Shown here piece after piece: positions 8,669 to 38,189 of a stretch of DNA of 64,000 nucleotides (its first letter is position 1; the number at the start of each line of letters is the position of its first letter). The notes below the pieces were generated by a model that was not told the origin of the DNA, made no database searches, and saw only the letters and a list, made by a program, of their open reading frames with translations. Both the position numbers and the translations under genes were made by a program. Origin of the DNA: an uncultured Anaerolinea sp. (GTDB lineage Bacteria > Chloroflexota > Anaerolineae > Anaerolineales > Anaerolineaceae); contig CAZMMI010000001.1 in the NCBI GenBank assembly GCA_964567255.1, forward strand, positions 1,247 through 65,246, written 5' to 3'.

Positions 8669-11600
8669 ATGTCTCAAAACACGGTCTTGTTCCATTCGAT
8701 GTCGACGCGAAGAACAACTTGGGCCAATTCTCTGCGAGTGCTTAGGGCGCTCGTCATTTTAACCTATCTGCTCTCGTTGATATGGGCGCCTACACTCAAT
8801 GTGCAGGCAGCCACAACCATAACCTTTACGGCGGAGGAGTTGTTGGGCAAACCCACAGACACCTCGGTGGCAGTAAACATCGTCCCCGCGGCCGACATTG
8901 AGTATCACTATCAATATGGCACCGAGGCGGGCAACTATACTGCTTCAACACCCAATGTGACTGGCATGGCCGGTCAGCCGAGTGAGGTGGTCATCACCGG
9001 TTTGAGCCCCAATACGCAGTATTACTACCGGATGCAGTACCACGCCCCGGGGGAGGCAATGGATGACTGGAACAGTCGCCCAGAGCATTCCTTCTGGACG
9101 CAGCGCGCACCGGGTCAGCCATTCATCTTCACCGTCACTTCCGACTCGCACGCTCAATTAACCGGCAACTTTCCGAATGCGATGACCAATATTTTGAACG
9201 AGGATCCCGATTTCACCGTTGACCTGGGCGATACCTTTATGATTGACAACGCCACCACGCAGACAGCGGTCAACAACGCTTACCTGGCTTACCGGGAACC
9301 GGCTTATTTTGACCGGATTGGCGGCTCGGTGCCCATCTTCCTGACGCCTGGGAACCACGAGAATGAGGAGGGATGGAACTTCGACGACGCTTTCAGCCTG
9401 CCTCTGGCAAGCATTCAAGCCAGAAAGTTGTATTATCCTATCCCCGTTCAGGATGGTTTTTATTCCGCAAACACAGACCTATTGTCTTCCATCGATGCTG
9501 GAACGTATGGCGATCAGTATCGTGAAGATTACTACGCCTGGACCTGGGGCGATGCATTGTTTGTGGTCATCGATGAGTTTCAATACACCATGGATTTGCC
9601 CTACACCGCTACAGCGGGAGAGGGCAGTGAGGCGGTTACCGGTGATCAATGGAGCTGGACGCTGGGTCAGCAGCAATTTGAATGGCTGAGACAAACGCTT
9701 GAGAACAGCAGCGCGCCTTACAAATTCATCTTCTCCCACCAGATGACGGGTGGAATCACCCGGGCTATTTCTGGCGTGGGCGCGGGTTATGTCCGCGGAG
9801 GCGCCGAAGCTGCTGCTTACTTTGAGTGGGGTGGAGCGAATTCGGATGGTTCGGACGGCTTCGCTAGCAATCGGGACCCTGCAGAATTTGGCACCGAGCC
9901 CATTCATCAGTTGATGGTCGCAAACGGGGTCAGTGCATACTTCCACGGTCATGACCATCAGTATGCATACGAGACCCGCGATGGCATCGTTTATCAAGAG
10001 GTGCCTTCCCCCAGCATGAGCGGCTCGGGGTTCAGCGGCATTTACACCGAGGGCGACCATGGTACCTATAACACCATCCGGGTTTTGCCGAACTCCGGCC
10101 ATTTGCGCATTTCGGTCACTCCAGAACAGGCAACGGTAGATTACATTTCCTCTGCTTCAACCAGCGGCACCGTCACCTACTCTTATACGATCGTGCCTCA
10201 CGCACCAGGAACAACATACACCTTGACCACCGGGGTGAACCCGGCTGAGGGCGGGACGGTCAGCCCGGCAGCAGGGGCTCACACCTACGCTGAAGGCGCA
10301 TCGGTTCCGGTCACTGCCACGCCTGCGACCGGGTTCGTTTTCTCGGAGTGGAGCGGGGCATGCAGCGGAACAGCGCCGTGCACGGTGACGATGAACTCGG
10401 ACCAGAGCGTGACGGCCAACTTCACTGCCGTGCCAACCTTCAATCTGACCACGGCAGTGATGCCTTCCGGCGCGGGAACGATCTCTCCGGCGTCAGGAAC
10501 GCATGCCTATAACCAGGGAACAGTGGTGCCGGTGACCGCGGTGCCCGGTGCGGGATATGCTTTCTCGAGTTGGGGCGGTGCGTGCGCGGGAACGGGGCCG
10601 TGCTCTGTGACGATGAACTCTGACCAGATCGTCACCGCGAACTTCACGGGCAGCGCCTTGCCAATTACCTTCACTGGAACGGAGTTCCTGGGACGGCCTG
10701 AGGATACATCGATCTCGGTGAGCGTCGTTCCAGATGCTGCCATTTCCTTGTATTACGAGTACGGCACTGTATCGGGGACTTATGCAAGTGTTACGCCGGC
10801 GATCAGCGTCGCGGCTGGACAGCCCCAGGTGGTGACCATCACCGGGTTGACCCCGAACATGCATTACTACTACCGGATGCAGTACAGCCCGGATGGCGGG
10901 GCTAGCTGGATTGCTCGCCCCGAAGGGTCCTTCTGGACGCAACGGGCTGCGGGGAGCACCTACTCCTTCACGATCACCTCTGATTCGCATATCAATATCA
11001 TGTTGGGAGACTCCGGTGCCTGGACGGACACATTGAACGATGTCAGGGTGGACAACGCCGACTTTTCCATTGATCTCGGCGACACTGTGGCGATGGACAA
11101 CGGCAGCGCCAGCATCAGTATTGGGGATGTGGCGGCTACCGAGCAGGTTTACAAAGATGTGCTTCCATTCCTCAATATCATCAGCGGCTCCTCTCCCATT
11201 TTCATGCTGCCCGGGAACCACGAACAACAAGAGGCCTGGCACCAACTGGAACCTGTAGCCAACAGCCTGCCCATCATGAGCAAGAACGCCGAAAAGAAGT
11301 TCTTACTCAACCCGCTTCCCGACTCGTTCTACAACGGAGACACCGCAACCAATCCCTATCTGAGCGGTGACCAACTGCAACAGGCTTACTACGCCTGGGA
11401 GTGGGGAGACGCTCTCTTTGTGGTGATCAACCCATTCTGGTTCACCACCCCAAAGCCATACACAACCACTGTCGGTGGTGGTGAGACGGATACCAACGGG
11501 TCGGGTAACCGCTGGGATTGGACGTTGGGGCAGGAGCAGTTCAACTGGCTGCAAACCACCCTGCAAAACAGCACCGCCAGCTATAAGTTTGTGCTTTCCC

Positions 11601-14600
11601 ACCAAATTGTGGGCGGAAATGGCATGTCTTCGCCGATCAACCAGGTGAATTACGGTCACGGCGGTGTTGATTCCGCCAATTTTGTCGAGTGGGGCGGGAA
11701 CAACACGGATGGCACCACGTACACTTGGGCGACCAATCGCATTGGATGGGGAAGCCTGCCAATTCGTCAGATGATGGAAGCCAACGGCGTGACGGCTTTC
11801 TTCCACGGTCACGATCACCAGTATGCTTACGAGCGACTCAACGGCATGGTTTACCAGGCTGTGCCGTCGGGGAGTTTTAGCGGCTCGTTCGGCACGTATA
11901 CTACGGGAGGCAATTCGGGAAATACGATCTGGGCGGATTCTACGCAGGGCCCCGGTCACCTCAAGGTAACGGTAGGGCCCGAAGAAGCCACCGTCGATTT
12001 TGTTCGCTCGGGAGCTTCATCTCCGGTCTACTCGTATACCATGCTTCCAGCGGGAACCGTAGGTGCGGGCGTGACGCAAGATGGCCCAGTCTATAACAAT
12101 ACCGCCGCAGCAAACGCCAGCAGTGCCAGCCTGAGTGTCAACACAGGGACAGGCAACGAACGCATGATGATGGTGGGCGTCTCCTGGAACTGCGGCAGCA
12201 CGGGACGGGCCATCTCCTCGGTTACCTTTACGCCCTCCGGCGGCAGCGCAGTCAATTTGGAGCCGGTCATCACCCAGCAAGCGGGGACGCAGTTGCGTTA
12301 TGCCGCTATCTACCGTCTGCTCAACCCGCCCGTCGGGGTTGCTGGCACGGTCAATGTCACCTTCTCGGGAGAGGTCAGTAACGGGATTGTGGTGGGCGCG
12401 GCCAACTTCTCAGGAGTGGACCAGGCAGACCCTCTCGGAACACCGGGCGGCGCGGGGTCTACCTCTCAGGGTACCGCTCCTACCGTGACTCTCTCTGGAC
12501 TGGAAGGAGACGAACTCGTCTTCGATACACTGTTTATGGGAGGAAACGACTCTGGACAAACTGTGACGCCTGGCGCCAGCCAGACTCAATTGTGGAGCAA
12601 TTTCTCCTCCAACACGCGCGGTGCGAGCAGCATGGAGCAGGCTTCGGGGAGTTCGGTCACCATGAGTTGGACAGCGTCCTCCTCGGCCTATTGGGCGATT
12701 GCTGCCGTTCCCCTCAACCCGTCTGACGTTACCCCGGTGTGTTACACACTGACATTGAGCCATACGGGCCAGGGCAATAATCCAACCGCCACTCCTGGGC
12801 AATCGACGAGTTGCGCGGTTCCCGGGCAGTACGAGGCAGGTCAGGCGATCTCTTTGAGTGGGGCGACGCCTGACTCGGGATGGCAGATTGGCAGTTGGAC
12901 GGGCACGGCCAATGACAGCAGCACAGCAGCCACCAACACCCTGACGATGCCTTCCAATGACCACACGGTTGCGGTAAATTTCACTGCCTTGCCAACTTAC
13001 ACCATTACGGCCTCGGCTGGAGCCAATGGAAGCATTTCTCCGTCGGGAAGCGTGCCGGTAAGCCAGGGGAGTAACCAAAGCTTTACTATCACCCCGGCGG
13101 CGAGCTATCACGTGGCGGATGTTCTGGTGGACGGCGCCTCGGTAGGGGCGGTGACAAGCTATACGTTCACGAATGTCACAGCCAACCATGCCATAGCCGC
13201 CACTTTCTCGGCAGACAACGTGTCTCCGGTGGCGGTGAACGATAGCTACAGCACCAACATGAACACCGCCTTAAGTGTGGCTGCTCCAGGCGTACTGACA
13301 AACGATACGGATGCGAATCTGGATCCTCTGACCGCTATCCGAATGAGCGATCCGCAGCATGGCACGTTGACCCTCAACGCAAACGGTTCCTTCACGTACA
13401 CGCCTGAAACGGACTTTACGGGCGATGATACCTTCACCTATCAAGCCAACGATGGCGCCCTCAACAGTAACACAGCCACCGTTACCATCAATGTCAGCAA
13501 TAGTTTGCCCCCTGTGTTGCCCTCCAGTTTCTATGGTGAGATCCATATTCTTACCAATCCGCCCACACCTGGGCAACTCATCTACGCCTACGTGCCGGGG
13601 GTGGCGGACCCGGTGGCAAACGATGTGATTAGTAACGCCACGCCGCTGAACTTCTCGATGGATGTTCCCGGTGACTCGACCGCTACACCGGCCAAGGACG
13701 GCGGCGTCAGCGGCGACACCATTACCTTCCGCATCGATGGGCGAATCGTTGCCACACATGCCTGGGTCGGCGGGACCAACGTCCGCCTGGATATTCATCC
13801 ACCGGAAGCGGTCGCGGGTGGGCCGTATTCGGGGGACGAAGGCGCTTCGATTAGTTTCTCCGGTTCGGCAAACGATTGGGGCTCCGACAGCTCTACCTAC
13901 CAGTGGGATTGGAATAACAACGGCGTCTACGATGCTTCGGGACAGACTCCAAACCACACCTGGAACGATAACGGCGCCGTGACGGTTGGCATGAAAGTGA
14001 CCGATTTGCAAGGCGGCGAGGGTTTCACCACCTTCACTGTGACCATTCTGGACGTGCTGCCGGGCAATGTGGACGCCGGCGGGCCGTACTCAGGGTCCAC
14101 CGGCCAGTCGATCTCCTTGAACGGGTCGGCAAACTGCGCCGCGGTGGACACCTGCTCGTTTGCCTGGGACCTGGATGGTGACGCGGCTTACGATGACGCC
14201 ACGGGGATGACTCCCAGTTACGTCTGGAACGCGGCCGGTGATTTCACCATCGGGCTGCGAGTCAGCGATGAAGACGGCAACGCCGTGACCGACACAGCCA
14301 CCGTCCACATCACTCCCGGCAATATGGAAATCTCGTTGGTGGCGGGCTGGAACCTGGTCTCCTTCAATCTGGCGCCGACCGACCCTGCCATTGCCACGGT
14401 TCTCAACAGTATTGCGGGGAACTACGATCTGGTTTATGCATGGGACGCTCAGGCAAGCAATTGGCTGAAATACGCGCCCAATGTGGGCTACGGCGACACG
14501 CTGACCGAACTGGACGAGACCAGCGCTTTCTGGATTCGGATGACGGCAGCGGATACGCTGGTGGTGTCTGGTACCGTCCCAACGACGACGGATATCCCCT

Positions 14601-14845
14601 TATTCACGGGATGGAACATGGTCGGTTACCCCAGCGCGGATCCCCTGGAATTGCCCGGTGCGTTCAGCGATCACGGCGTGGGAACCGATTTCAGCCTGGT
14701 CTATGCCTATCATGCAGCCGATAGCGACGTGTGGAAGAAATACGATCGCACGGCTCCGATCGGAAACGACTTGCTGGAACTGGTTCCGGGCTATGGGTAT
14801 TGGGTTCAGGTAAGCGCGAACCACACCTGGGTTGTGGGTTACTAA
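8669..14845 (+). CDS. Giant secreted mosaic protein P1 (about 2058 aa) with two metallophosphoesterase units
   Basis: The track ORF is 8456-14845 with a TTG start. I prefer the ATG at 8669, which gives a signal peptide (..LIWAPTLNVQA|AT). There are two units of [FN3-like purple-acid-phosphatase N-domain + MPE with DSH / GDT..D / GNHE / SHQ / GHDH]. These are followed by two InlB-B-type repeats, an SWNCGST module, further InlB-B-like repeats, a cadherin-like/VCBS Ig module (VAVNDSYST..), an FYG module, two PKD domains and the shared C-terminal Trp-rich domain. Confidence 0.85.
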   Translation: MSQNTVLFHSMSTRRTTWANSLRVLRALVILTYLLSLIWAPTLNVQAATTITFTAEELLGKPTDTSVAVNIVPAADIEYHYQYGTEAGNYTASTPNVTGMAGQPSEVVITGLSPNTQYYYRMQYHAPGEAMDDWNSRPEHSFWTQRAPGQPFIFTVTSDSHAQLTGNFPNAMTNILNEDPDFTVDLGDTFMIDNATTQTAVNNAYLAYREPAYFDRIGGSVPIFLTPGNHENEEGWNFDDAFSLPLASIQARKLYYPIPVQDGFYSANTDLLSSIDAGTYGDQYREDYYAWTWGDALFVVIDEFQYTMDLPYTATAGEGSEAVTGDQWSWTLGQQQFEWLRQTLENSSAPYKFIFSHQMTGGITRAISGVGAGYVRGGAEAAAYFEWGGANSDGSDGFASNRDPAEFGTEPIHQLMVANGVSAYFHGHDHQYAYETRDGIVYQEVPSPSMSGSGFSGIYTEGDHGTYNTIRVLPNSGHLRISVTPEQATVDYISSASTSGTVTYSYTIVPHAPGTTYTLTTGVNPAEGGTVSPAAGAHTYAEGASVPVTATPATGFVFSEWSGACSGTAPCTVTMNSDQSVTANFTAVPTFNLTTAVMPSGAGTISPASGTHAYNQGTVVPVTAVPGAGYAFSSWGGACAGTGPCSVTMNSDQIVTANFTGSALPITFTGTEFLGRPEDTSISVSVVPDAAISLYYEYGTVSGTYASVTPAISVAAGQPQVVTITGLTPNMHYYYRMQYSPDGGASWIARPEGSFWTQRAAGSTYSFTITSDSHINIMLGDSGAWTDTLNDVRVDNADFSIDLGDTVAMDNGSASISIGDVAATEQVYKDVLPFLNIISGSSPIFMLPGNHEQQEAWHQLEPVANSLPIMSKNAEKKFLLNPLPDSFYNGDTATNPYLSGDQLQQAYYAWEWGDALFVVINPFWFTTPKPYTTTVGGGETDTNGSGNRWDWTLGQEQFNWLQTTLQNSTASYKFVLSHQIVGGNGMSSPINQVNYGHGGVDSANFVEWGGNNTDGTTYTWATNRIGWGSLPIRQMMEANGVTAFFHGHDHQYAYERLNGMVYQAVPSGSFSGSFGTYTTGGNSGNTIWADSTQGPGHLKVTVGPEEATVDFVRSGASSPVYSYTMLPAGTVGAGVTQDGPVYNNTAAANASSASLSVNTGTGNERMMMVGVSWNCGSTGRAISSVTFTPSGGSAVNLEPVITQQAGTQLRYAAIYRLLNPPVGVAGTVNVTFSGEVSNGIVVGAANFSGVDQADPLGTPGGAGSTSQGTAPTVTLSGLEGDELVFDTLFMGGNDSGQTVTPGASQTQLWSNFSSNTRGASSMEQASGSSVTMSWTASSSAYWAIAAVPLNPSDVTPVCYTLTLSHTGQGNNPTATPGQSTSCAVPGQYEAGQAISLSGATPDSGWQIGSWTGTANDSSTAATNTLTMPSNDHTVAVNFTALPTYTITASAGANGSISPSGSVPVSQGSNQSFTITPAASYHVADVLVDGASVGAVTSYTFTNVTANHAIAATFSADNVSPVAVNDSYSTNMNTALSVAAPGVLTNDTDANLDPLTAIRMSDPQHGTLTLNANGSFTYTPETDFTGDDTFTYQANDGALNSNTATVTINVSNSLPPVLPSSFYGEIHILTNPPTPGQLIYAYVPGVADPVANDVISNATPLNFSMDVPGDSTATPAKDGGVSGDTITFRIDGRIVATHAWVGGTNVRLDIHPPEAVAGGPYSGDEGASISFSGSANDWGSDSSTYQWDWNNNGVYDASGQTPNHTWNDNGAVTVGMKVTDLQGGEGFTTFTVTILDVLPGNVDAGGPYSGSTGQSISLNGSANCAAVDTCSFAWDLDGDAAYDDATGMTPSYVWNAAGDFTIGLRVSDEDGNAVTDTATVHITPGNMEISLVAGWNLVSFNLAPTDPAIATVLNSIAGNYDLVYAWDAQASNWLKYAPNVGYGDTLTELDETSAFWIRMTAADTLVVSGTVPTTTDIPLFTGWNMVGYPSADPLELPGAFSDHGVGTDFSLVYAYHAADSDVWKKYDRTAPIGNDLLELVPGYGYWVQVSANHTWVVGY

Positions 14846-14857
14846 CAGATGATAGAC

Positions 14858-14910
14858 GCGGCAGGCTTGGCTAGAGAGACACGGGGAACCTTTCTAGCCG
14901 GGCCTGCCGC
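14858..14910 (+). terminator. Strong intercistronic hairpin after P1
   Basis: GCGGCAGGC-tt-GGCTAGA...TCTAGCC-gg-GCCTGCCGC gives 16 paired bases. It starts 13 nt after the P1 stop and is followed by cagTTTGTGTTGTGG. Confidence 0.5.
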
Positions 14911-14998
14911 CAGTTTGTGTTGTGGCGTCCAAACGCCCGTTCTCCGAAATATGACCAGCTTGCGGAAAGCATTGCTTTTGATCTTGTACGGAGGGAAC

Positions 14999-17900: not shown

Positions 17901-20632
17901 GCACGGGGGGGAATCGCTTGATGCTGGTGGGAATCTCCTGGAATTGCGGCAGCACGGATCGCTCCATTTCCTCGGTTACCTTTACCCCCTCCGGTGGCAG
18001 CGTCGTTGACCTGACGCCGGTCATCACCCAAAAGACGGAAGGACAGTTGCGCTATGCTGCGATATATAGCCTGCTCAACCCGCCTGCCGGTGTCTCGGGC
18101 ACGGTCACGGTCACCTTCTCGGATGCTGTCAGCAACGGCATTGTGGTGGGCGCGGCTAACTTTGCGGGAGTAAATCAGATAACACCATTGGGCTCTCCGG
18201 GCGGCGCTGGGCCCTCTTCCCAGACTACTGCTCCCAGTGTCACTTTGTCAGGGCTGAATGGGAGCGAGTTGGTTTATGATACGGTCTTTATGGGTGGAAG
18301 CAGTTCATCTCAGACTCTGACACCTGCTTCAGGTCAGAATCAGTTGTGGACGAATTTCGTCTCTAACGCTCGCGGGTCTGGAAGCGTTCAGCAAGCTGCC
18401 GCGAGTTCTGTCACGATGAGTTGGACAGCGGCAAGCTCTAGCTATTGGGCTATTGCTGCCGTGGCGATCAACCCGGCTGCGCTTGGCCCAACCTGTTACA
18501 CGTTGACCTTGAGCCACACCGGTCAGGGGAGCAGTCCGGTTGCCACGCCGAACCAATCGGCAGCTTGCCCAGCCGCGGGGCAATACGTGGCAGGTGAGTC
18601 GATCGTCCTGAGTGGCGCTGTCCCCGACTCGGGTTGGCAAATCGGCGGCTGGACAGGCACAGCGAATGACAGCAGCAAAGCGGCTACCAACACCCTGGTA
18701 ATGCCGGGGAGCGATCATGCCGTTGCGGTTAACTACACGGCTCTGCCGACCTACACGATCACTGCATTGGCAGGGGAGAACGGTTCAATTACGCCTTCGG
18801 GTGCGGTGGTGGTCAATTCGGGGGCGGAACAAGCCTTTACTATCGCTCCGGCGGAAGGCTATCATATTTTGGATGTGTTGGTTGACAGTGTCTCGGTGGG
18901 TGCAGTCGGTACCTACACCTTCACAAATGTGACAGCAGACCATACCATCGCAGCGTCCTTTGCCATCAACACCTACACGATCACAGCATCGGCAGGGGAA
19001 AATGGTTCGATCACGCCTTCGGGTGCGGTGGTCGTCAACTGGGGCGCGAACCAGGCCTTTACTATTGCTCCGGCGGAAGGCTATCATATTTTGGATGTGT
19101 TGGTTGACAGCGTCTCGGTAGGTGCAGTCAGTACCTACACCTTCACAAACGTGACAGCAGACCATACCATCACAGCCTCGTTTGCTATCAATACCTACAC
19201 GATCACAGCATCGGCAGGGGCGAATGGCTCAATCACGCCTTCGGGGGCGGTGGCCGTCAACTGGGGTGCGGACCAAGCCTTTACTATCGCTCCGGCGGCT
19301 GGCTACCATGTCGCCGATGTGCTGGTAGACGAGGTTTCAGTGGGCGAGGGCGGTACCTACACCTTCAGTAATGTGACTGCCAATCACAGTATTGCCGCTT
19401 CGTTCGACATCAATACCTACACCTTGTCATACACGGCAGGAACAGGCGGAACATTGACCGGCGATGCGCTCCAGACGGTGAGTCACGGCGGCAGCGGTAC
19501 GGCTGTGACAGCGGTCGCAAATGAGGGCTATCACTTTGTCGGTTGGAGTGATGGAGGACTTACCGCAGAGCGCACAGATACCAACATTGCAGCAGACCTC
19601 AGTGTCACTGCGAATTTTGAAGAGAATGCAACCGTAACCTACACGATCACGGCCTCGGCGGGCGAACATGGCTCAATTGCGCCTTCTGGTGCGGTGGTGG
19701 TCAACGAGGGCGCCAGCCAAACATTCAACATCACCCCAGAGGCAGGACACCACGTGACTGACGTTGTGGTGGACGGGGTCTCGATTGGCGCAAACAGCAC
19801 TTACACATTCAACAATGTCACCGCGAACCACACCATTTCTGCGTCTTTTGCCATCAACACGTACACGCTGACTTATACAGCGGGAACGGGCGGAACGTTG
19901 AGCGGAGATGCGGTCCAGAGCGTAGATCATGGCAACGACGGCACGGCTGTGACAGCAGTCGCGAATCCTGGCTATCACTTTGTTGATTGGAGTGATGGGG
20001 TGACCACTGCGACTCGCACCGATACCAATATTATGGCGGACATCAGCGTTACGGCCCACTTTGCTGAAACTTCGACGTCCCGCAGCATTCCGCTGGTTGC
20101 AGGATGGAATCTTGTTTCGTTCGACTTGCATCTGGCCAACTTGGAGATCTCCACGGTTCTTAATGACATTTCCGGCCATTACGACCTGGTGTACGCCTAC
20201 GACTCGACCGGGGCACATGCGGCGAGCGGGAACTGGATGAAGTATGACCCAACCGGGCCAGGGTATCAAAACACGCTTTCTAGCCTGGACGAAACGATGG
20301 GCTTTTGGATTCACATGACCGCTGCGGACACCCTGGAGGTGAGCGGTACGGTTCCGGTGAATACAGAGATCAGCCTGTCGGACAATGCCGGGGGCTGGAA
20401 CCTGGTTGCCTACCCGTCCCTGACCAACGGCGCGCTTCCTGCCGCCTTGAGTGATCACGGTGTGGGCACCGATTTCAGCCTGGTGTTTGCCTACCATCCG
20501 CAAGATGTTGACCAGTGGAAGGTTTTCGACCGGACCGCCCCCGAATGGTCCAATGATCTTACAGAGATGACTGCGGGTTGGGGGTATTGGATCAGGGTGA
20601 GCGCGGATCATACCTGGATCGTGGTTCATTAA
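14999..20632 (+). CDS. Giant secreted mosaic protein P2 (about 1877 aa), collinear paralog of P1 with one metallophosphoesterase unit
   Basis: The track ORF is 14849-20632. The ATG at 14999 has GGAGGG three nt upstream and yields a signal peptide (..LGLPATVVQA|AA). It has an FN3-like domain plus MPE (DSH / GDTFAMD / GNHE / AHH / GHDH), two SWNCGST modules, many InlB-B-type repeats and the shared C-terminal domain. Confidence 0.85.
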   Translation: MHHPFNARLISLFIILSVLFSALGLPATVVQAAAVITFSGTELLGRPTSSSVTINIVPDITIEYHYEYGIAPGTYTAQTGNVTATGGQPSEAVLSGLTANTRYYYRMQYHAPGDPADDWVNRTEHSFWTQRTEGSAFSFSITSDSHVNIMLGNAATWTQTMTNIAGAAPDFQIDLGDTFAMDSVTTANAADAAYLYQRQFFDLVGHSTPIFLAAGNHEQQEGWHLDDTGSPPVLSTNAQKKYYVNPAPDGFYTGDTETVPELDGDHLREDYYAWTWGDALFVVIDPFWFTTTKPFIGTTGGGEENEGSGNRWDWTLGQTQFNWLRTTLEGSDARYKFVFAHHMTGGSDDYVRGGANPAHLVEWGGYNEAGTTYEWESQRPEWGSEPVHQIFVTNHVSAFFHGHDHQYGYESRDGVVYQALPAAGFSGSGFGIYTSEEGYTIQAMPSPGHLQVSVNSTQTTVDYIATSGATVNYSYAIAPFSEPDFTITATAGLNGSISPAGVVGVVSGANQSFSITPNSGYQVGDVLVDGASVGPVTVYEFTNVVANHTIESSFEQSSLTSPVLDGAVSSGTAASGSSITVNHTTGTGADRLMLAGISWNCGSTGRTISSVTFTPSGGSAVNLEPVITQQAGTQLRYAAIYSLLNPPSGTAGTLTVTFSGSVGSGIVAGAANFMGVNQTTPLGTPGGAGPSSGTTTPTVTLTGLSGSELVFDTVFMGGSGSSQTLTPDTDQSQLWNDFAGNTRAAASTALAAGSSVTMNWTAASSAYWAIAAVPINPAPSGPPTYTLSMAASPSIGGTATDLTGTSPYESGEVVSISAAPVAGYHFVNWSAPAGAFGDANAASTTFTMPTQTVTVTANFAPDFTYALDMAVSPGGGGTATDLTGASPYGPGMVVNISGAAASGYRFVNWTAPAGTFGDPNLAATTFTMPAQAVTVTANFAPAVTLDGAVVTSTGAANASSASVAVDTGTGGNRLMLVGISWNCGSTDRSISSVTFTPSGGSVVDLTPVITQKTEGQLRYAAIYSLLNPPAGVSGTVTVTFSDAVSNGIVVGAANFAGVNQITPLGSPGGAGPSSQTTAPSVTLSGLNGSELVYDTVFMGGSSSSQTLTPASGQNQLWTNFVSNARGSGSVQQAAASSVTMSWTAASSSYWAIAAVAINPAALGPTCYTLTLSHTGQGSSPVATPNQSAACPAAGQYVAGESIVLSGAVPDSGWQIGGWTGTANDSSKAATNTLVMPGSDHAVAVNYTALPTYTITALAGENGSITPSGAVVVNSGAEQAFTIAPAEGYHILDVLVDSVSVGAVGTYTFTNVTADHTIAASFAINTYTITASAGENGSITPSGAVVVNWGANQAFTIAPAEGYHILDVLVDSVSVGAVSTYTFTNVTADHTITASFAINTYTITASAGANGSITPSGAVAVNWGADQAFTIAPAAGYHVADVLVDEVSVGEGGTYTFSNVTANHSIAASFDINTYTLSYTAGTGGTLTGDALQTVSHGGSGTAVTAVANEGYHFVGWSDGGLTAERTDTNIAADLSVTANFEENATVTYTITASAGEHGSIAPSGAVVVNEGASQTFNITPEAGHHVTDVVVDGVSIGANSTYTFNNVTANHTISASFAINTYTLTYTAGTGGTLSGDAVQSVDHGNDGTAVTAVANPGYHFVDWSDGVTTATRTDTNIMADISVTAHFAETSTSRSIPLVAGWNLVSFDLHLANLEISTVLNDISGHYDLVYAYDSTGAHAASGNWMKYDPTGPGYQNTLSSLDETMGFWIHMTAADTLEVSGTVPVNTEISLSDNAGGWNLVAYPSLTNGALPAALSDHGVGTDFSLVFAYHPQDVDQWKVFDRTAPEWSNDLTEMTAGWGYWIRVSADHTWIVVH
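18743..19408 (+). repeat. In-frame tandem repeat, 3 x 222 bp (74-aa InlB-B-like unit), inside P2
   Basis: Units start at 18743, 18965 and 19187. They are about 90% identical by eye (INTYTITASAGENGSITPSGAVVVN.GA.QAFTIAPAEGYHILDVLVDSVSVGAV.TYTFTNVTADHTI.ASFA). More diverged copies continue to about 20070. Confidence 0.9.
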
Positions 20633-23700: not shown

Positions 23701-26623
23701 CCTGGCGCCAAATACGGAGTATGAGTGGTACGCGGCGGTAAGCGACGGTGCTTCGACTACCAATGGTCCCACATGGTCGTTCACCTCAGGTACGGGCAGC
23801 GGCAATACTCCGCCGGTGATCTCGGGTGAAGACCCGCGGGCAGTGACCATGTCGGAAGACGGCACGCCTACCGCCTTTAACCTCACCCTCAACGCCACGG
23901 ACATCGATTTAGGCGATACCTTGACCTGGAGTGTCGCCACGCCTGCCGGTTATGGAACGGCGCTAGCCTCCGGCACAGGTCCATCTACGGTGGTTAGTTA
24001 CACACCAACAGCCAATTACTATGGAGCAGATGGCTTTGTTGTCCAGGTCGCAGACGGCAACGGCGGCGCCGATACCGTCACTGTCAATGTGACCGTGGAA
24101 GCGGTCAACGACCTTCCGGTTGCTGACCCTCAGAATGTGTCTGTCTTCATCGACACGGCCAGGGGAATCACTTTGACGGGTTCCGATATTGACAGCAGTA
24201 CGCTCAACTATATGCTGGTCAGCAACCCGACGAACGGCTCTTTGACAGGAACAGCGCCTGGACTCACCTATACCCCGGCATCTGACTATACCGGCCCGGA
24301 TAGCTTCACATTCTTGATCAACGATGGGGTAGGGGACAGCAATACGGCTACGGTGAATATTCAGGTTTCATCTGGGAATCCTCCGCAGATGCCTTCTAGC
24401 TTCTACGGTGAAATCCATATTTCCGATCAGCAGCCGATCGTTGGTGATCTTGTGGAGGTCTATGTGCCGGGGGTGGTAACACCGGTTGCCAGCACAGCCA
24501 TTACCACAGATGCTGGTCAGCTAGTTTATACACTCAGCGTTCCCGGGGAGGACGGGGTGGATCCAAAAGAGGGGGGCGTCGAAGGGGATGTCGTCACGTT
24601 CAGAATTGGAACGCGCGTTGTTTCCAGCGGCGTCTGGCACACAGGCACCAATGTTCAAGTGAATATCCACCCGCCTGAGGCAATCCCCGGAGGACCTTAT
24701 GACGGTTCGGCTGGGGTGGCGGTTGGCTTGAGCGGAGCGGCCAACGATTGGGGCGCGGATGTTTCCACCTATGAATGGGATTGGGACAACGACGGTACTT
24801 TTGACGCGACCGGCCAAACACCCAGCCACACCTGGGCTAGCAATGGAGCGTACACGGTAAGTCTGCGGGTGACCGATTTGAATGGCGGTCAGGGTACCGC
24901 CCTCACGACAGTTAATGTGGTCAACCATGCGCCTACCGATATTGACCTCTCTGCCAGCACGGTAGCCGAGAATAGGGTAGCCAATACGCTTGTCGGTACT
25001 TTAACGAGCACCGATCCAGACCCTGGCAATACATTCAGCTACGCCCTGGTTAGCGGCGCAGGGAGCGACGACAATGCCTCCTTCAACATCGACGGTAACA
25101 ACCTGAGAACCTCGGCTGTCTTTGACTACGAAACGAAGTCCAGCTATGCGGTGCGCATCCGCACAATGGATCAAGGCGATCTGAACTATGAGGAGAGTTT
25201 TGTTATCACAGTCTCGGATGTGAACGAGGCTCCAGTCGTGGCAGATATCGCCAATCAGACCATCGCTGAGGGAGCGGCGTTTGCTGCCATCAGTTTGGAT
25301 GACTTTGTTTCCGACGTGGATAACGCAGACGCGCAAATGACCTGGACGTTCAGCGGAAACGTGGATCTGGCGGTGAGCATCACCAACCGGGTAGCCACGA
25401 TCACAGCTCCCAACAGTGATTGGAGCGGCGCCGAGACGATTACTTTCCGGGCTGCCGATCCCGGCGGGCTGTATGACGAAGATGCCGCCACCTTCACCGT
25501 CACGGCGGCAAATGATGCGCCGGTGGTGATGGATATTCCAAACCAGACAATTGTCGAGGGCGGAGCGTTTGCGACCATCAGCCTGGATAATTTCGTCTCG
25601 GATGTGGATAACACAGACGCCCAAATGACCTGGACGTCTAGCGGCAATACGAACCTTTCAGTGAGTATTACCAATCGGGTGGCTACGATCTTAGTGCTGG
25701 ATGCTGAGTGGAACGGATCGGAGATCATCACCTTCCGCGCAGCCGATCCGGATGGGCTGTTTGACGAAGACACCGCTATCTTCACCGTGACCGGAGTGAA
25801 CGATGCCCCCGTGGTGAGCAATATCCCCGATCAGAGCATTCTCGAGGGCGCGACCTTCTTTACCATTCCCCTGGACGATTACGTTGTAGACGTGGACAAC
25901 CCCGACACGCAGATGGTCTGGTCATATAGCGGCGATGTCGATTTGGCGGTCAGCATTACTGATCGAGTCGCCACGATTACCCCGCCCAACTCTGCCTGGA
26001 GCGGCGTGGAAACGATCACCTTCCGCGCCACCGATCCGGACGGGCTGTTTGATGAGGATGTTGCCACCTTCTCTATCACTTCAACCGTTGTGACCCATGA
26101 TTATCCTCTGGTGGTGGGCTGGAACCTGGTGTCCTTTGACCTTCACCCGACCAGCACCGCTATAGCGGATGTGCTGGCTTCGATCAGCGGCCAGTATGAC
26201 CTGGTCTATGGTTGGAATGCAACTAGCGGCTCGTGGATGAAATATGCTCCGGGCGTTGGGTACGGTGACACGTTGACCACACTGGATGAAACCAGGGGCT
26301 TCTGGATCAAGATGAACGCAGCCGATACCCTGTCTGTGAGCGGCACAGTGGTGAGTCCTACCAGTATCGCTTTGGAGAGTGGATGGAATCTGGTTGGGTT
26401 CCCGGCAGGTGCCAGCCTGGTCTTGCCCGATGCATTTACGCTGCATGGCGTAGACACCGAGCTCGATCTGGTGTATGCCTATCGGGCCAACGAACCGAGC
26501 GACCCGTGGAAACTGTTCGACCCTGAAGCGCCGGATTGGGTAAACGACCTGAATGAAATGGCGCCGGGATGGGGCTATTGGGTGTTCGTCTCGGCGGATT
26601 GCACTTGGAACGTGGTGCATTAA
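20759..26623 (+). CDS. Giant secreted mosaic protein P3 (1954 aa) with a distinct metallophosphoesterase domain
   Basis: GAGGGGAAGG lies upstream of the ATG at 20759, and the signal peptide ends QQVQA|AA. It has an unassigned N-terminal region and a DNRLRE-like beta-sandwich (ALLRWDLSSIPSNAVVTSGSLGVYV..SWVEG). The MPE has PDTQ / GDMVN / GNHD / QHD / GHMH. It also carries VCBS/cadherin-like Ig modules, an FYG module, one PKD domain, one cadherin domain, three 96-aa repeats and the shared C-terminal domain. Confidence 0.85.
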   Translation: MNTNWMVKKSLSTSARKLFQGFFALLFALSLVGIQPPQQVQAAAYTWIAYNDSVSGSSQHTTANTTTIAYNGSGQLRRQSDGSNTGITAAFTSNGSISSTSNGVDANSGTDAYNTFYPYADMVGVVNSSTSGWWVDLTLSGLDPARTYTFAGSTARDGGYTTRNTTFILSGDTAAINASTSGVTVVDDHTIAINTGTNRAQGYVVRWTGINPGSDGTIVIRSRASTTSEIAGSVANAYALSVFMLAEETTDPVITVAGALNAFTSQPGVYSTVQTYTVSGGNLTEDISIDAPAGFELSTNGTDYFAHLSLPRIAGDVAPTTISVRLYSGTIGLFQGNITHASSGVITNMPVSGTVTTCGSDSMVAVEDTYLSANDPTYNNGGNTSLHINGTTGTDRRTALLRWDLSSIPSNAVVTSGSLGVYVSDTSTVAYSLYSMRQSWVEGTSTQAASTTSANWNTYNGAGSWGTAGAASTSLDRFDTNLWNATTTSFSTTGSKTVILNAAGVSAVQEWISGAAGNYGLIIQDYTGSSNSLYIASSENTTEVNRPRLNLEYCAGSETYAVNATSSGHGSVTISPLAASYPSGVTVTLTPVADLGYEFGSWSGPDAADVLNNGNGTWSLFVDGDKTVFADFVISSVNVAPYAPVLMQPADDAVNVSVPPTLQVTASDPNPLDTLNVSFYGREVSTTAGPDFRLVAIPDTQNYATSYPDVFTDHLQWIADSREPMNIVFATSVGDMVNTATSATEYTRADTAYDRLDAGNVNYSVGPGNHDTTSGSLWPTYFGVSRFSGKSTYGGAYNDYNTYHLFSASGMDFLLINLQYNPTSAILDWADARLKEYPDRRAIVEQHDILNTDDSWNNQASYNALRDNPNLFLMLCGHMHSTSDGAAYRAETGTDGHTIHIVMQDYQDEAGSGYLRIYRFSPADDMIYMTTYSPITGESLTTSPDQMNLSYDMGGNMTPYGLIGTVPNVVNGSNASVPWPGLAPNTEYEWYAAVSDGASTTNGPTWSFTSGTGSGNTPPVISGEDPRAVTMSEDGTPTAFNLTLNATDIDLGDTLTWSVATPAGYGTALASGTGPSTVVSYTPTANYYGADGFVVQVADGNGGADTVTVNVTVEAVNDLPVADPQNVSVFIDTARGITLTGSDIDSSTLNYMLVSNPTNGSLTGTAPGLTYTPASDYTGPDSFTFLINDGVGDSNTATVNIQVSSGNPPQMPSSFYGEIHISDQQPIVGDLVEVYVPGVVTPVASTAITTDAGQLVYTLSVPGEDGVDPKEGGVEGDVVTFRIGTRVVSSGVWHTGTNVQVNIHPPEAIPGGPYDGSAGVAVGLSGAANDWGADVSTYEWDWDNDGTFDATGQTPSHTWASNGAYTVSLRVTDLNGGQGTALTTVNVVNHAPTDIDLSASTVAENRVANTLVGTLTSTDPDPGNTFSYALVSGAGSDDNASFNIDGNNLRTSAVFDYETKSSYAVRIRTMDQGDLNYEESFVITVSDVNEAPVVADIANQTIAEGAAFAAISLDDFVSDVDNADAQMTWTFSGNVDLAVSITNRVATITAPNSDWSGAETITFRAADPGGLYDEDAATFTVTAANDAPVVMDIPNQTIVEGGAFATISLDNFVSDVDNTDAQMTWTSSGNTNLSVSITNRVATILVLDAEWNGSEIITFRAADPDGLFDEDTAIFTVTGVNDAPVVSNIPDQSILEGATFFTIPLDDYVVDVDNPDTQMVWSYSGDVDLAVSITDRVATITPPNSAWSGVETITFRATDPDGLFDEDVATFSITSTVVTHDYPLVVGWNLVSFDLHPTSTAIADVLASISGQYDLVYGWNATSGSWMKYAPGVGYGDTLTTLDETRGFWIKMNAADTLSVSGTVVSPTSIALESGWNLVGFPAGASLVLPDAFTLHGVDTELDLVYAYRANEPSDPWKLFDPEAPDWVNDLNEMAPGWGYWVFVSADCTWNVVH
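25238..26101 (+). repeat. In-frame tandem repeat, 3 x 288 bp (96-aa unit), inside P3
   Basis: Units start at 25238, 25526 and 25814 (V.DI.NQTI.EG.AF..ISLD.FVSDVDN.DAQMTWT.SGN..L.VSITNRVATI....W.G.E.ITFRAADP.GL.DED.A.FTVT..NDAPV). Confidence 0.9.
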
Positions 26624-26727
26624 GAAGCGCATATGGATTCACCCGTATAGCCGCGGAATCAAAGGGGTTGTACGGGTGAGCTTCCAGATCTTTTTACATG
26701 ATTGAAACGTGTTGTGGAGGTACTCAG

Positions 26728-28836
26728 ATGAGTAAAAAGAGTTTGTTGGTTAGCATCACGCTGATGCTGGGTTTGTTGTTTTTCAATGTTCAGAGCGCCA
26801 TGGCTGTTCCGCCAATTCCGTCTGGTTTCTACGGGACGGTCAAAATCGATGGCGCGAATGTCCCCGACGGCACAGTCATTTCTGCTCGGATTGGCGGCAT
26901 TGAATATGAGAATACAACAGTTCTTCTCTATGGAGGAGATACCGTATTTAGCCTGGATGTTCCGGGGGATGACCCGGAAACAGCCGGGGTTGTGGAGGGC
27001 GGCGTTCAAGGAGAAACAATCACCTTCTTCATCGGCTCCGTTCAGGCCAACCAGACCGCGACCTGGCAATACGGCACAAATATCTCCTTGAACTTAACCG
27101 CAAGCAGTAATCACGCGCCGACCGCCATTGGTCTATCTGCCAGCAGTATCGCAGAGAATGCTGCTGCCAACACGGTGGTAGGCACGCTTTCCACCACGGA
27201 CCCGGATGCAGGGAATACCTTTACATATAGTCTGGTCGTCGGAACCGGCGACACAGACAATGGAGCCTTTAACATCTCTGGGAGCAGCTTGCGGGCCACA
27301 AATTCCTTCAACTATGAGGTCAAATCCAGCTACTCTGTGCGAGTTCGTTCCACCGATCAGGGCGGATTGTATGCTGAGCAGGCCTTCACTATCACGGTCA
27401 CCGATGTCAACGAGGCGCCCACGGTGGTGGCTCTGTCTGCTTCAAGCATCGCCGAAAATGCTGCTGCTAACACGGTGGTTGGCACGCTTTCCACGACCGA
27501 TCCGGACGCAGGTAATACCTTCTCTTATAGCCTGGTTACTGGAACCGGTGATACGGACAACGGAGCCTTCAATATCTCGGGGAGCAGCCTGAGGGCCACG
27601 GCGTCCTTCAATTATGAGGTCAAATCCAGCTACTCTGTGCGGGTCCGTTCCACGGATCAGGGCGGGTTGTATGCTGAGCAAGCCTTCACCATCACGGTCA
27701 CTAATGTCAATGAGGCGCCTACGGTGGTGGCTCTGTCTGCTACGAGCATTGCTGAAAATGCTGCTGCCAACACGACGGTTGGCACGCTTTCTACAACAGA
27801 CCCGGACGCAGGCAACACCTTCACCTACACTCTGGTCACCGGAACCGGCGACACGGACAACGCTGCTTTCAATATTTCTGGAAGCGGCCTGCGGGCCACG
27901 AATCCCTTCAACTATGAGGTCAAGTCCAGCTACTCCGTGCGGGTCCGTTCCACGGATCAGGGCGGGTTGTATGCTGAGCAAGCCTTCACTATCACAGTCA
28001 CGAACGTAAACGAAGCCCCGGTGATTACGGAGAGCGATCCTCAGAGTGTGACCATGTCCGAAGACGGTTTGCCGGTTGCCTTCAGTCTCACCTTGCACGC
28101 ATCAGACGTGGACAGCGGAGACGTTCTGACCTGGTCCATTTCCACCGCGGCGCTGCATGGCACAGCCAGTGCTTCGGAGACGGGCGGCGAGAAGGCGATT
28201 GGATACGTTCCGAACAGCGGATACGCTGGTACAGATAGCTTCGTTGTGCGAGTCACCGACGCGTTTGGGATCAACGATAGCCTGACCGTGAACGTGACGA
28301 TCACGTCGGTTACTCGGCTTGATTTGGTTCTGGGGTGGAACCTGGTCTCTATCGATGTGCATCCCACAAATACAGACATTGCGAGCGTGCTGGGGTCGAT
28401 CGCGGGAAGTTATGACCTGGTCTATGCCTGGGATGCGACCAGCGGTTTGTGGGTCAAGTACGCCCCCAACGTCGGTTACGGAAACACATTAACAACGTTG
28501 GATGAGACCATGGGTTTCTGGGTGCGGATGACATCGCTGGATACGCTGGAATTGAGCGGGACGCAGCCTGTCACTACCGAGATCGAACTCCACACAGGTT
28601 GGAATCTGGTCGGGTTCCCCTCTGGAACCAGCCTGCCGCTGCCGGACGCGTTGAGCTTGCACGGCGCGGGGTCCGATTTCACCCTGGTGTACAGCTACCA
28701 TGCTGCCGATGTAGCCGATGCCTGGAAGAGATATGATCCTGCGACAGCCATCGGGAATGACTTGACTGAGATGGCACCCGGTTGGGGTTATTGGGTTCGG
28801 ATGAGCGCTGACCGCACCTGGACCGTCCCATACTAA
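26728..28836 (+). CDS. Secreted protein P4 (702 aa): FYG module, three cadherin repeats, an Ig-like module and the shared C-terminal domain
   Basis: The track ORF is 26698-28836. The ATG at 26728 has GGAGG upstream. The signal peptide ends NVQSAMA|VPPIPSGFYG. The cadherin units end in DVNEAP. Confidence 0.85.
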   Translation: MSKKSLLVSITLMLGLLFFNVQSAMAVPPIPSGFYGTVKIDGANVPDGTVISARIGGIEYENTTVLLYGGDTVFSLDVPGDDPETAGVVEGGVQGETITFFIGSVQANQTATWQYGTNISLNLTASSNHAPTAIGLSASSIAENAAANTVVGTLSTTDPDAGNTFTYSLVVGTGDTDNGAFNISGSSLRATNSFNYEVKSSYSVRVRSTDQGGLYAEQAFTITVTDVNEAPTVVALSASSIAENAAANTVVGTLSTTDPDAGNTFSYSLVTGTGDTDNGAFNISGSSLRATASFNYEVKSSYSVRVRSTDQGGLYAEQAFTITVTNVNEAPTVVALSATSIAENAAANTTVGTLSTTDPDAGNTFTYTLVTGTGDTDNAAFNISGSGLRATNPFNYEVKSSYSVRVRSTDQGGLYAEQAFTITVTNVNEAPVITESDPQSVTMSEDGLPVAFSLTLHASDVDSGDVLTWSISTAALHGTASASETGGEKAIGYVPNSGYAGTDSFVVRVTDAFGINDSLTVNVTITSVTRLDLVLGWNLVSIDVHPTNTDIASVLGSIAGSYDLVYAWDATSGLWVKYAPNVGYGNTLTTLDETMGFWVRMTSLDTLELSGTQPVTTEIELHTGWNLVGFPSGTSLPLPDALSLHGAGSDFTLVYSYHAADVADAWKRYDPATAIGNDLTEMAPGWGYWVRMSADRTWTVPY
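27115..28014 (+). repeat. In-frame tandem repeat, 3 x 300 bp (100-aa cadherin unit), inside P4
   Basis: Unit boundaries are at 27115, 27415, 27715 and 28015. The units are near-identical at both nucleotide and protein level. A diverged single copy is present in P3 at about 24925-25225. Confidence 0.9.
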
Positions 28837-28934: not shown

Positions 28935-29534
28935 ATGAAAATACTGAAGCAAATATCGATCTGCCTTTTGATATGCCTGATGAGCCTGTTTGTCGCCGAA
29001 CCTGTGTTGGCTTTTCCCCCGCTGCCATCCAGCTTTTATGGAAAAGTCAAAGTAGACGGGGAAAATGTGCCAGACGGAACCGTGGTCGAAGCCTGGATCA
29101 ATGGGAAAGTGTATACAGAGGCGAAAACGCAAACTTACGAGGGGGACTCGGTCTATGCGATGGATGTGACCGGCGATGACGCCAGCACGAACGATGTGGA
29201 GGGAGGGATCGAGGGTGACAAGATCGAGTTTCGGGTTGCTGGGCAGGTTGCTGGACAGTCTGGCATATGGCACAGCGGTACGAACACCAATCTGGACCTT
29301 TCCGTCGCGTCGGCGGCGGATCAGGTTAACCCTGCTGCAACAGCTGTACAAGCGACGCAAGCCCAACCTCAACCTGTACCTCTTGATGAGATCTCTCGAG
29401 ATTCTACCAGTCAGGATATCACCACCACCAACAACAACCGTCTCTTAACAATTACCTTGATCGTCGCCACTGTCGTGATCGTTTCCGTTGTCTTTTGGCT
29501 CCTATTCATCCGAAAGCCAAAGGTCAAGCCATAA
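28935..29534 (+). CDS. Small FYG-module protein P5 with a C-terminal transmembrane anchor
   Basis: 199 aa with GAGAGGA upstream. The signal peptide ends EPVLA|FPPLPSSFYG. One FYG module is followed by a low-complexity linker, then LLTITLIVATVVIVSVVFWLLF and a basic tail, IRKPKVKP. Confidence 0.8.
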   Translation: MKILKQISICLLICLMSLFVAEPVLAFPPLPSSFYGKVKVDGENVPDGTVVEAWINGKVYTEAKTQTYEGDSVYAMDVTGDDASTNDVEGGIEGDKIEFRVAGQVAGQSGIWHSGTNTNLDLSVASAADQVNPAATAVQATQAQPQPVPLDEISRDSTSQDITTTNNNRLLTITLIVATVVIVSVVFWLLFIRKPKVKP

Positions 29535-29553: not shown

Positions 29554-30246
29554 ATGAAGAAATCGCAAATCCTCGTCGCTTTTCTTGTGGTTTTTGCCAT
29601 TCTAGCGCTTAATGTGCAACCCACATACGCTTTTCCGCCCCTTCCATCTGGCTTCTATGGATCGGTCAAGATAGACGGCGTCAACGTCCCCGCCGGAACG
29701 GTTGTAATGGCCAGAATCAATGGTGTCCAATATGCTTCCACGGTGATTACAACCTATCTTGGGGACACAGTTTTTAGCCTGAACGTACCTGGAGATGATG
29801 CGGATTCGCCGGGCGTGATTGATGGAGGCGTGCCTGGAGACATGGTTGTGTTCTTCATTGGATCGCGTCAAGCGGAACAGACCGCCCCCTGGACCAGCGG
29901 ATCGAATGTTCCTTTGAACCTGACGGCGGTGGGCAATTATGCGCCGGTGATTACCGAGGGCGGTTCAGTAAACGTGACGATGTCAACCGCGTTTGACCTC
30001 ACTCTACATGCTACCGATACCGACGGAGATGAAATCACCTGGGGCATTGCGACCGCTGCCAGCCACGGTTCCGCCACGGCCAGCGGCACCGGAACTTCAA
30101 AGGTGATCGGGTACGCTCCGAACGCGCAGTATGTGGGGGCCGACAGCTTTGTTGTCCAGGTGTCGGATGGCAGGGGCGGCACAGATACCATCACCGTTAA
30201 CGTTACGGTTCGCGCGGTCCTATTCTTACCGATGATCAGTCGATAG
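29554..30246 (+). CDS. Small secreted protein P6: FYG module plus one Ig-like (VCBS/cadherin-like) module
   Basis: The track ORF is 29488-30246. The ATG at 29554 has AGGAAG upstream. The signal peptide ends QPTYA|FPPLPSGFYG. The second module (ITWGIATAASHGSATASGTG..VIGYAPN..YVGADSFVVQVSDGRGGTD) is homologous to modules in P3 and P4. Confidence 0.8.
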   Translation: MKKSQILVAFLVVFAILALNVQPTYAFPPLPSGFYGSVKIDGVNVPAGTVVMARINGVQYASTVITTYLGDTVFSLNVPGDDADSPGVIDGGVPGDMVVFFIGSRQAEQTAPWTSGSNVPLNLTAVGNYAPVITEGGSVNVTMSTAFDLTLHATDTDGDEITWGIATAASHGSATASGTGTSKVIGYAPNAQYVGADSFVVQVSDGRGGTDTITVNVTVRAVLFLPMISR

Positions 30247-38178: not shown

Positions 38179-38189
38179 TACATCGATCC

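Follow-up and report, generated by a model that had tools for sequence, protein, structure and literature searches.

A duplicated all-beta module at the C-terminus of giant secreted Anaerolineae proteins, a candidate surface-docking domain with a putative companion socket

In cohesin-dockerin systems, type I and type II dockerins are carried by enzymes, and cohesins by anchored and adaptor scaffoldins; in SlaA/SlaB S-layers, a membrane-rooted stalk protein holds a large outer protein non-covalently. Of the filamentous bacteria that live in sediments, groundwater, and wastewater sludge, Anaerolineae belong to the most abundant, and to our knowledge next to nothing has been established on how proteins are fixed to their unusual envelope. 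Our literature search for an Anaerolineae or Chloroflexi docking, sorting, or anchoring domain found no description of one. Here, we analyzed a 64,000-nucleotide stretch (hereafter, the window) of contig CAZMMI010000001.1 from an uncultured Anaerolinea sp., in which four neighboring genes encode large proteins (P1 to P4) ending in the same module of about 175 amino acids (aa). We propose, at a probability of roughly 0.45, that it may be a non-covalent surface-docking module, dockerin-like in function and unrelated in fold, and that its likely socket is a second uncatalogued domain of ~100 aa, which we named FYG for its conserved "SFYGxV" start.

The C-terminal modules of P1 to P4, translated from the four intervals in Table 1, are clear homologues of 173-183 aa each, with pairwise identities of 57-64%, tblastn E values of 1e-58 to 1e-71, 73 invariant columns in the four-copy alignment, and a mean column identity of 74%. 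The module is the sole region common to all four proteins, its last residue is in each case the final codon before the stop, and tblastn found no fifth copy in the window. Boundaries re-derived with a profile of 75 homologues (14324-14842, 20081-20629, 26096-26620, and 28312-28833) lie within one codon of those first assigned by eye. Profiles of the N- and C-terminal halves align with each other at an hhalign probability of 99.65% (E = 3.6e-25) and, judged by this similarity, the module is a true internal duplication of a ~87-aa unit. Shifted tblastn matches had hinted that P4 and P1 have a further half-unit upstream, and this third candidate was rejected because the half-unit profiles find exactly two in each of the four proteins. 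Aromatic residues are frequent, with 8 Trp and 11 Tyr among the 173 residues of the P1 copy, and Trp accounts for 5 of the 10 columns that are invariant over the 75 homologues.

These data agree with an earlier annotation made from the letters alone (the sequence-only reading), which had described four homologous and always terminal modules with an internal two-fold pattern; the consensus that it drew up by eye proved accurate. It had also noted that transmembrane helices and known C-terminal signals are missing. Indeed, our hydropathy and motif checks detected no hydrophobic 19-mer past the signal peptide and no LPXTG in P1 to P4. No NCBIfam CTERM model matched, and signals of the sortase, exosortase, or archaeosortase type (LPXTG, PEP-CTERM, PGF-CTERM) are accordingly absent from the four proteins.

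The open reading frames (ORFs) of the four carriers span 8456-14845, 14849-20632, 20759-26623, and 26698-28836. Inspection of the N-termini gave the likely starts used in Table 1, and with these corrected starts all four proteins begin with a Sec-type signal peptide. P1 then runs through a metallophosphatase/PhoD-like domain, InlB-B-type repeats, Big_9/cadherin domains, FYG, and PKD to the module, and P2 through a metallophosphatase and nine InlB-B-type repeats, with no FYG domain detected by profile search. In P3, an N-terminal region without assignment is followed by Big_9/cadherin/PKD domains, FYG, and the module, and in P4 an N-terminal FYG is followed by three cadherin repeats, Big_9, and the module. 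P1 and P2 are paralogues, and their N-terminal heads (8699-10400 and 14999-16600) are calcineurin-like, PhoD-like, or purple-acid-type phosphatases that precede the InlB-B-type repeats; by this domain make-up, the two proteins look like phosphate-scavenging enzymes on long stalks.

As the sequence-only reading had stated, the module falls into no named family of Pfam-A, NCBIfam, or the PDB sequences. The four copies gave no Pfam-A or NCBIfam match at E <= 10 except one chance match (0.14), divergent versions from archaea and from bacteria of the Fibrobacterota-Chlorobiota-Bacteroidota (FCB) group gave no Pfam-A or NCBIfam match in any superfamily branch, and a search of the PDB sequences with module profiles of 4 or 75 sequences was likewise without a match. 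More specifically, the module is not a Dockerin_1 domain (PF00404; no Pfam match at E <= 10 and an all-beta model), not a type IX secretion system (T9SS) C-terminal domain (TIGR04183/PF18962; no NCBIfam or Pfam match), and not a Listeria-type GW module (PF13457, SH3_8; no Pfam match and no internalin among the Foldseek PDB matches). SLH, CWB2, LysM, and SH3b gave no profile match, also with the divergent versions, and membership among the carbohydrate-binding modules (CBMs) is supported by neither a Pfam nor a fold match, glycoside hydrolase partners being rare.

Structure prediction and a fold search, which the sequence-only reading had suggested, gave a confident model and no credible PDB neighbor. 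The AlphaFold2 model, built with 75 homologues as input, reached a predicted local distance difference test (pLDDT) of 97.5 and a predicted template modeling (TM) score (pTM) of 0.91. It is all-beta with 14 strands; each half contributes six strands plus a short helix, and the two pack together as a single rigid body. Given this model and a between-genome identity of about 50% across Anaerolineae, the module is a conserved folded domain and not a linear signal. Foldseek against the PDB gave a best E value of 0.064 and TM scores of at most 0.24. A single match in BFVD (TMq 0.66) comes from an uncultured marine phage and is an uncharacterised protein named "putative hemin binding protein"; our guess is that it is a distant homologue whose name was inherited from the annotation of a T9SS-type C-terminal domain, which would make it functionally uninformative; a scan of viral contigs for relatives of the module found none. 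We class the module as a candidate for surface retention or docking, one whose fold is new and whose partner probably is as well.

A fold without a PDB neighbor might also be a new binding fold, directed at an external polysaccharide, a mineral, or another cell, with the carrier proteins released or anchored by other means. CBM and lectin-like sandwiches are indeed among the weak, non-significant Foldseek similarities, and in P0211, a protein of the wider family, an N-terminal module adjoins a catalytic-looking domain (this C-terminal domain of P0211 has no assignment in Pfam or the PDB sequences). However, the sole CBM among the matches has an E value of 0.47 and a TM score of 0.15, fusions to glycoside hydrolases are rare, and the phosphatase heads of P1 and P2 lie at the opposite, N-terminal end. 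Moreover, adhesive tips usually diversify, whereas the module is the most constant part of its carriers, and such distal binding would leave its synteny with anchored FYG genes (see below) unexplained. We therefore consider distal binding improbable.

A profile search over 1.84 billion cluster representatives (clusters at 50% identity) recovered 11,517 proteins with the module at E <= 1e-3, 5,202 at E <= 1e-10, and 596 at E <= 1e-30. Species-representative genomes scanned with the four-copy alignment showed the close subfamily (identity above about 45%) only in Anaerolineae, including Villigracilis, Bellilinea, Brevefilum, and metagenome-assembled genomes (MAGs) of Anaerolineaceae; three contigs in this identity range bear non-Chloroflexota bin labels, which we ascribe to noise in the binning. 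More distant relatives (27-43% identity) are present in archaea (Thermoplasmata, Bathyarchaeia, and Methanoperedens) and in other bacteria (Zixibacteria, Ignavibacteriales, Calditrichota, Bacteroidota, Fibrobacteraceae, and Rhodothermia).

The sequence-only reading had asked whether the module is always C-terminal. This holds for most of the family, in that 145 of the 150 top representatives carry the module within 12 residues of the C-terminus. We also scanned all ORFs of 75 fetched loci with the profile; their retrieval favors sequences with LV[AVL]GWNLVS or YDLVY[AG][WY][DN][AS]. The tail behind the module measures 0-4 residues in about 75 Anaerolineae genes, archaeal copies are likewise terminal, and module genes commonly lie next to each other in twos or threes. 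Strict terminality fails in the FCB-group phyla, where a constant tail of 225-235 residues follows, consisting of a ~110-aa domain and a canonical T9SS C-terminal domain (NYPNPFNP...K); such internal modules with a T9SS C-terminal domain were found in the Ignavibacteriales, Zixibacteria, Rhodothermia, Bacteroidota, and Calditrichota relatives. In addition, the module stands directly behind the signal peptide in P0211 and P0071, is repeated five times internally in the dockerin-ended P0122, and occurs in tandem in P0231. In several MAGs, module genes are split by frameshifts or stops inside the module (L009 7329-9148, L046, L047, L054, and L056), owing either to assembly errors in long-read MAGs or to real pseudogenisation of paralogues.

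The strict C-terminal placement with a 0-4-aa tail in the Anaerolineae subfamily and the many paralogues per genome recall the T9SS C-terminal domain (Por_Secre_tail), also a folded beta domain found in many copies per genome at the extreme C-terminus of diverse large secreted proteins. The module could by this analogy be a secretion or sorting signal that a dedicated Anaerolineae machinery reads and possibly cleaves. The two domains are, however, not homologous, and in the T9SS phyla the genuine sorting domain comes after the module, which is thus part of the cargo. Its N-terminal position in P0211 and its five-fold internal repetition in P0122 also argue against a sorting signal, 175 aa far exceeds the length of known sorting domains, and no conserved candidate machinery gene was seen in the window. 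A preprint (bioRxiv 10.1101/2025.08.19.671072) presents Chloroflexota as increasingly regarded as monoderm; if this applies here, the Sec signal peptides of P1 to P4 should suffice for export. Hence, a sorting signal is the explanation to which we give the least credence, and we judge it highly improbable. Of the roles that the sequence-only reading had offered for the module (targeting, envelope attachment, or secretion and sorting), envelope attachment is supported by genomic context, and secretion or sorting is not.

The FYG domain and the two genes behind P4, which we term S1 and S2, hold most of the functional information on the module; the sequence-only reading had noticed neither the domain nor the genes. 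Behind the module, FCB proteins carry a ~110-aa domain that is a homologue of the one at the N-terminus of mature P4 (hhalign 97.3%, E = 1.7e-11), and the same homology extends to the minimal proteins P0034, P0041, and P0118, which consist of signal peptide, FYG, and module. A search of the window with profile A3 (hmmsearch) located five FYG sites, in P1, P3, P4, S1, and S2. No Pfam or NCBIfam family covers FYG: PF13620 and PF13715 did not match, and only a sub-threshold match to NCBIfam Ig_like_ice was seen. In a Foldseek search with a model of P0034, local matches included the C-terminal domain of the PapC usher (3l48, probability 1.0, TMt 0.51), an N-terminal extension of SusC (9hfj), 3e8v, and Gram-positive pilins, and the FYG part thus bears a likeness to transthyretin/CnaB/carboxypeptidase-regulatory-like sandwiches.

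In a representative set free of retrieval bias, FYG is present in 62 of the 115 module proteins that reach 400 aa or more, at the N-terminus in 18, directly beside the module in 8, and internally in 36. Both orders occur, FYG before the module in P0034, P0041, and P0118 and the module before FYG in FCB proteins and P0122. Such recurrent fusion hints at an interaction between the two domains by the classical "Rosetta-stone" argument. The model of the natural fusion P0034 has a pLDDT of 91 and, despite a disordered signal peptide, a pTM of 0.75; this exceeds what we would expect of two independently placed domains, pTM being an approximate guide here. The module part of this model again had no Foldseek match in the PDB. 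In other Anaerolineae loci, FYG-headed proteins end in dockerin-like sequences (DxDGD-type repeats) or SLH-like ones (L040 2318-2983, L041 2415-3089, and L028 6686-11470), so that FYG is combined with several attachment devices.

The top PDB match of the P0034 fusion model is the S-layer stalk SlaB (8qox_B, E = 6e-4), a weak match with a TM score of 0.22 that concerns a generic sandwich. The locus does resemble SlaA/SlaB in that a small beta-sandwich protein rooted by a transmembrane helix is encoded beside large, anchorless secreted proteins. One might thus suppose that the module, with or without FYG, oligomerises homo- or heterotypically into a surface layer, sheath, or fiber. The pseudo-two-fold of the module, the existence of minimal proteins with both domains, the presence of both in more than half of the cargo proteins, and the arrangement of several module genes in tandem would all fit. 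But the cargo is extremely heterogeneous and multi-paralogous (phosphatases, a peptidase, and cadherin/PKD/InlB-type stalks), unlike lattice-forming proteins such as the single one of an SlaA/SlaB layer. Self-assembly also overlaps with docking and does not exclude it. As an explanation in its own right, we find it improbable.

Gene order provides the second link between the module and FYG. In the window, P4 is followed by S1 and then S2. S1 consists of a signal peptide, FYG, a ~60-aa low-complexity linker rich in Ala, Gln, Pro, Thr, and Ser, a C-terminal transmembrane helix, and a basic tail; S2 consists of a signal peptide, FYG, a Big_9/tandem-95-type domain, and a short C-terminal motif. 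Of 56 Anaerolineae loci, at least 18 have an S1-type gene behind their last module gene, and a close relative (L076, ENA ERZ25039462) has the same gene order. In divergent Chloroflexota, the downstream FYG or FYG-like gene also ends in a transmembrane helix (L067, L070, and L075), and L058 has an FYG gene downstream of its module gene. The FYG protein encoded downstream in Methanoperedens ends in a PGF-CTERM-like signal, and those of Ignavibacteriales and Zixibacteria end in a T9SS C-terminal domain. An inspection of neighboring genes, also suggested by the sequence-only reading, thus revealed anchored FYG genes downstream of module genes. As far as comparative gene order can tell, this pairing outlasts changes of envelope type, with the anchor swapped by lineage.

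Our scan found no terminator-like site between P4, S1, and S2, and the next unit starts with a perfect sigma-70 consensus at 30713-30741. A GC-rich inverted repeat without a T-tract lies between P4 and S1 at 28857-28899 (GGCCGAAAAGAA ... TTCTTCGGCC); not called as a terminator by the scan, it might modulate the ratio of cargo to anchor expression.

Collectively, three lines of evidence argue for envelope attachment: the module stands in the anchor position of secreted proteins otherwise devoid of anchors, it is C-terminal in the large majority of representatives and Anaerolineae genes, and behind module genes comes one that encodes a membrane-anchored stalk with the co-occurring FYG domain. 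We postulate that the module, a self-contained, two-lobed, all-beta domain, holds Sec-exported giant proteins at the cell surface, retaining phosphatase-tipped and adhesin-like stalks without a covalent or membrane anchor of their own. The FYG beta-sandwich is its most likely partner, and we infer both this binding and the resulting cargo retention from domain co-occurrence and gene order. S1 would present one FYG on a stalk rich in Pro and Thr, with the C-terminal helix as its root in the membrane. Since cargo proteins, P1, P3, and P4 among others, have an FYG of their own, docking of module to FYG could chain them together, with P4-type and minimal signal peptide-FYG-module proteins as putative adaptors in the manner of cellulosome scaffoldins.

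The proposed arrangement shares several features with cohesin-dockerin systems: a constant terminal module shared by many diverse secreted cargos, a partner beta-sandwich both on a small cell-anchored protein and inside cargo or adaptors (which permits hierarchical assembly), clustered genes, and FYG proteins in related loci that end dockerin-like or SLH-like. It differs in that there is no kinship of sequence or fold. A dockerin is a ~70-aa, Ca-binding, duplicated F-hand, whereas the module is a ~175-aa duplicated all-beta domain, and a cohesin is a jelly roll, whereas FYG appears to be a transthyretin/CnaB-like sandwich. In addition, most cargo here consists of adhesin-like stalks and phosphatases instead of glycoside hydrolases, and docking is a prediction.

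Several observations weigh against docking to FYG. Many module genes have no FYG gene within 6 kb (for example L006, L008, L011, L012, L025, and L032), and four Thermoplasmata or Bathyarchaeia loci show none at all. The sandwich fold of FYG is generic and often merely a stalk element. With a shared receptor, the modules of one genome would be expected to be homogenised, and homogenisation is mild (58% identity within versus 50% between genomes) and not decisive. In T9SS phyla, module proteins carry their own anchor signal, and docking would not be needed for retention there. Finally, transmembrane helices were called by simple hydropathy and loci retrieved by two patterns, which makes the locus frequencies rough.

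The module genes without an adjacent FYG gene would be accounted for if the Trp/Tyr-rich lobes instead bound an envelope glycan, such as a secondary wall polymer, peptidoglycan, or a sheath polysaccharide, retaining the cargo in the manner of SLH, CWB2, LysM, or Listeria GW modules, with FYG an unrelated stalk. Like these, the module is made of ~80-aa tandem repeats at the C-terminus of secreted surface proteins that lack another anchor, with a conserved Gly-Trp at the start of each unit and further conserved aromatics, and InlB-type B-repeats are present in P1 and P2 as well. However, it comprises exactly two units packed as one rigid body, it belongs to no known wall-binding family by Pfam, NCBIfam, or fold, and its aromatics may just build the hydrophobic core. 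Its carriers also include archaea (among them Thermoplasmata MAGs), Chloroflexota, and FCB-group bacteria with T9SS signals, lineages whose envelopes presumably differ greatly and are unlikely to share one wall polymer; a co-inherited protein partner would be more economical. Glycan binding would, moreover, leave the synteny and fusion with FYG across phyla unexplained, and we consider it unlikely.

If docking to FYG is correct, the module and FYG might more broadly form a so far unrecognised plug-and-socket system of new folds in Bacteria and Archaea that builds hierarchical surface assemblies, a wider claim that we regard as doubtful though worth stating. An S1-type membrane base, adaptors with FYG and module, and terminal enzymes or adhesins would make up such an assembly, on a cellulosome-like principle that evolved independently and is possibly a main route of surface decoration in Anaerolineae. 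A third component could be contributed by ~140-aa proteins made of a signal peptide, FYG, and a "YLPLIxR-stop" ending, for instance as a donated strand or peptide ligand. The S2 ending fits this family-wide motif, [IVL]-[YF]-L-P-[LMVI]-[IV]-x-[RKNH]-stop, which is not in NCBIfam. A strict regular expression for it matched 71 of 120 FYG proteins, with many near-misses. The motif ends a very large family of such ~140-aa proteins as well as some larger ones (carriers include P0287-P0340, P0251/P0254, L018, L029, L035, L039, L057, L059, and L067). With only ~8 residues and no transmembrane helix, it is unlike known sortase- or exosortase-type signals, and FLPMISR-type endings could serve as a donated strand or a peptide ligand.

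The module marks thousands of giant secreted proteins now annotated as "hypothetical". A defined docking pair, if true, would provide a handle for predicting the surface proteome of uncultured Anaerolineae, explain how phosphatases and adhesins are retained on the filament, and offer a new orthogonal protein-protein docking pair of novel folds for synthetic scaffolding. Even with a different partner, the module and FYG, as large and confidently folding families, and the C-terminal motif merit database entries.

Table 1. Coordinates of the carrier genes, modules, FYG domains, and companion genes in the window
Feature	Position	Strand	Basis or remark
P1 gene	8699..14845	+	likely ATG start; ORF, Pfam, signal peptide
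P2 gene	14999..20632	+	ORF, Pfam, signal peptide
P3 gene	20774..26623	+	ORF, Pfam, signal peptide
P4 gene	26728..28836	+	ORF, Pfam, signal peptide
P1 module	14324..14842	+	translation, alignment, profile envelope, half-unit profiles, AlphaFold model
P1 module half-units	about 14324-14581 and 14582-14842	+	half-unit profiles
P2 module	20081..20629	+	translation, alignment, tblastn, profile, half-unit profiles
P3 module	26093..26620	+	translation, alignment, tblastn, profile, half-unit profiles
P4 module	28312..28833	+	translation, alignment, tblastn, profile, half-unit profiles
FYG in P1	13508..13804	+	hmmsearch A3, E = 5e-28
FYG in P3	24380..24673	+	hmmsearch A3, E = 4e-27
FYG at mature P4 N-terminus	26806..27105	+	hmmsearch A3, E = 6.5e-45
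S1, proposed anchor	28935..29534	+	translation, FYG profile, hydropathy
FYG in S1	29013-29312	+	hmmsearch, E = 7e-36
S1 transmembrane helix	29433..29519	+	about residues 167-195, then RKPKVKP; Kyte-Doolittle 19-mer maximum 2.86
S2	29554..30246	+	translation, FYG profile, Pfam, NCBIfam
FYG in S2	29632-29931	+	hmmsearch, E = 5e-36
S2 C-terminal motif "VLFLPMISR"	30217..30243	+	translation, family motif statistics

Elsewhere in the window, a 1,426-aa protein encoded at 16-4296 (- strand) shows cadherin-like, PD40, and PMP-repeat matches and has no module, and thus not every large surface-type protein of the region uses it. Two adjacent genes for Rce1-like (CPBP) intramembrane proteases lie at 36052-38768 (- strand) beside an ArsR/MarR-type regulator. 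Paralogous MalT-like/LuxR regulators (AAA_16, TPR_MalT, and GerE) at 39085-41883 and 44174-46858 (+ strand) flank a zinc-type alcohol dehydrogenase gene. A 2,877-aa ORF at 55344-63977 (- strand) combines glucoamylase-like, glycoside hydrolase family 94 (GH94) supersandwich, and GH94 catalytic domains, an architecture reminiscent of cyclic beta-1,2-glucan synthases. The Rce1-like proteases were considered as processing enzymes of the cluster and rejected, since module genes of other loci do not have them as conserved neighbors; the MFS transporter, the TetR and MalT regulators, and the GH94 giant protein were dismissed as module machinery, none being conserved beside module genes elsewhere. Just upstream of P1, at 7524-8120 (+ strand), a 198-aa ORF has only weak zinc-ribbon/transposase-N-terminal-like matches, and a counterpart of the same length occupies the same position in L076 (929-1525).

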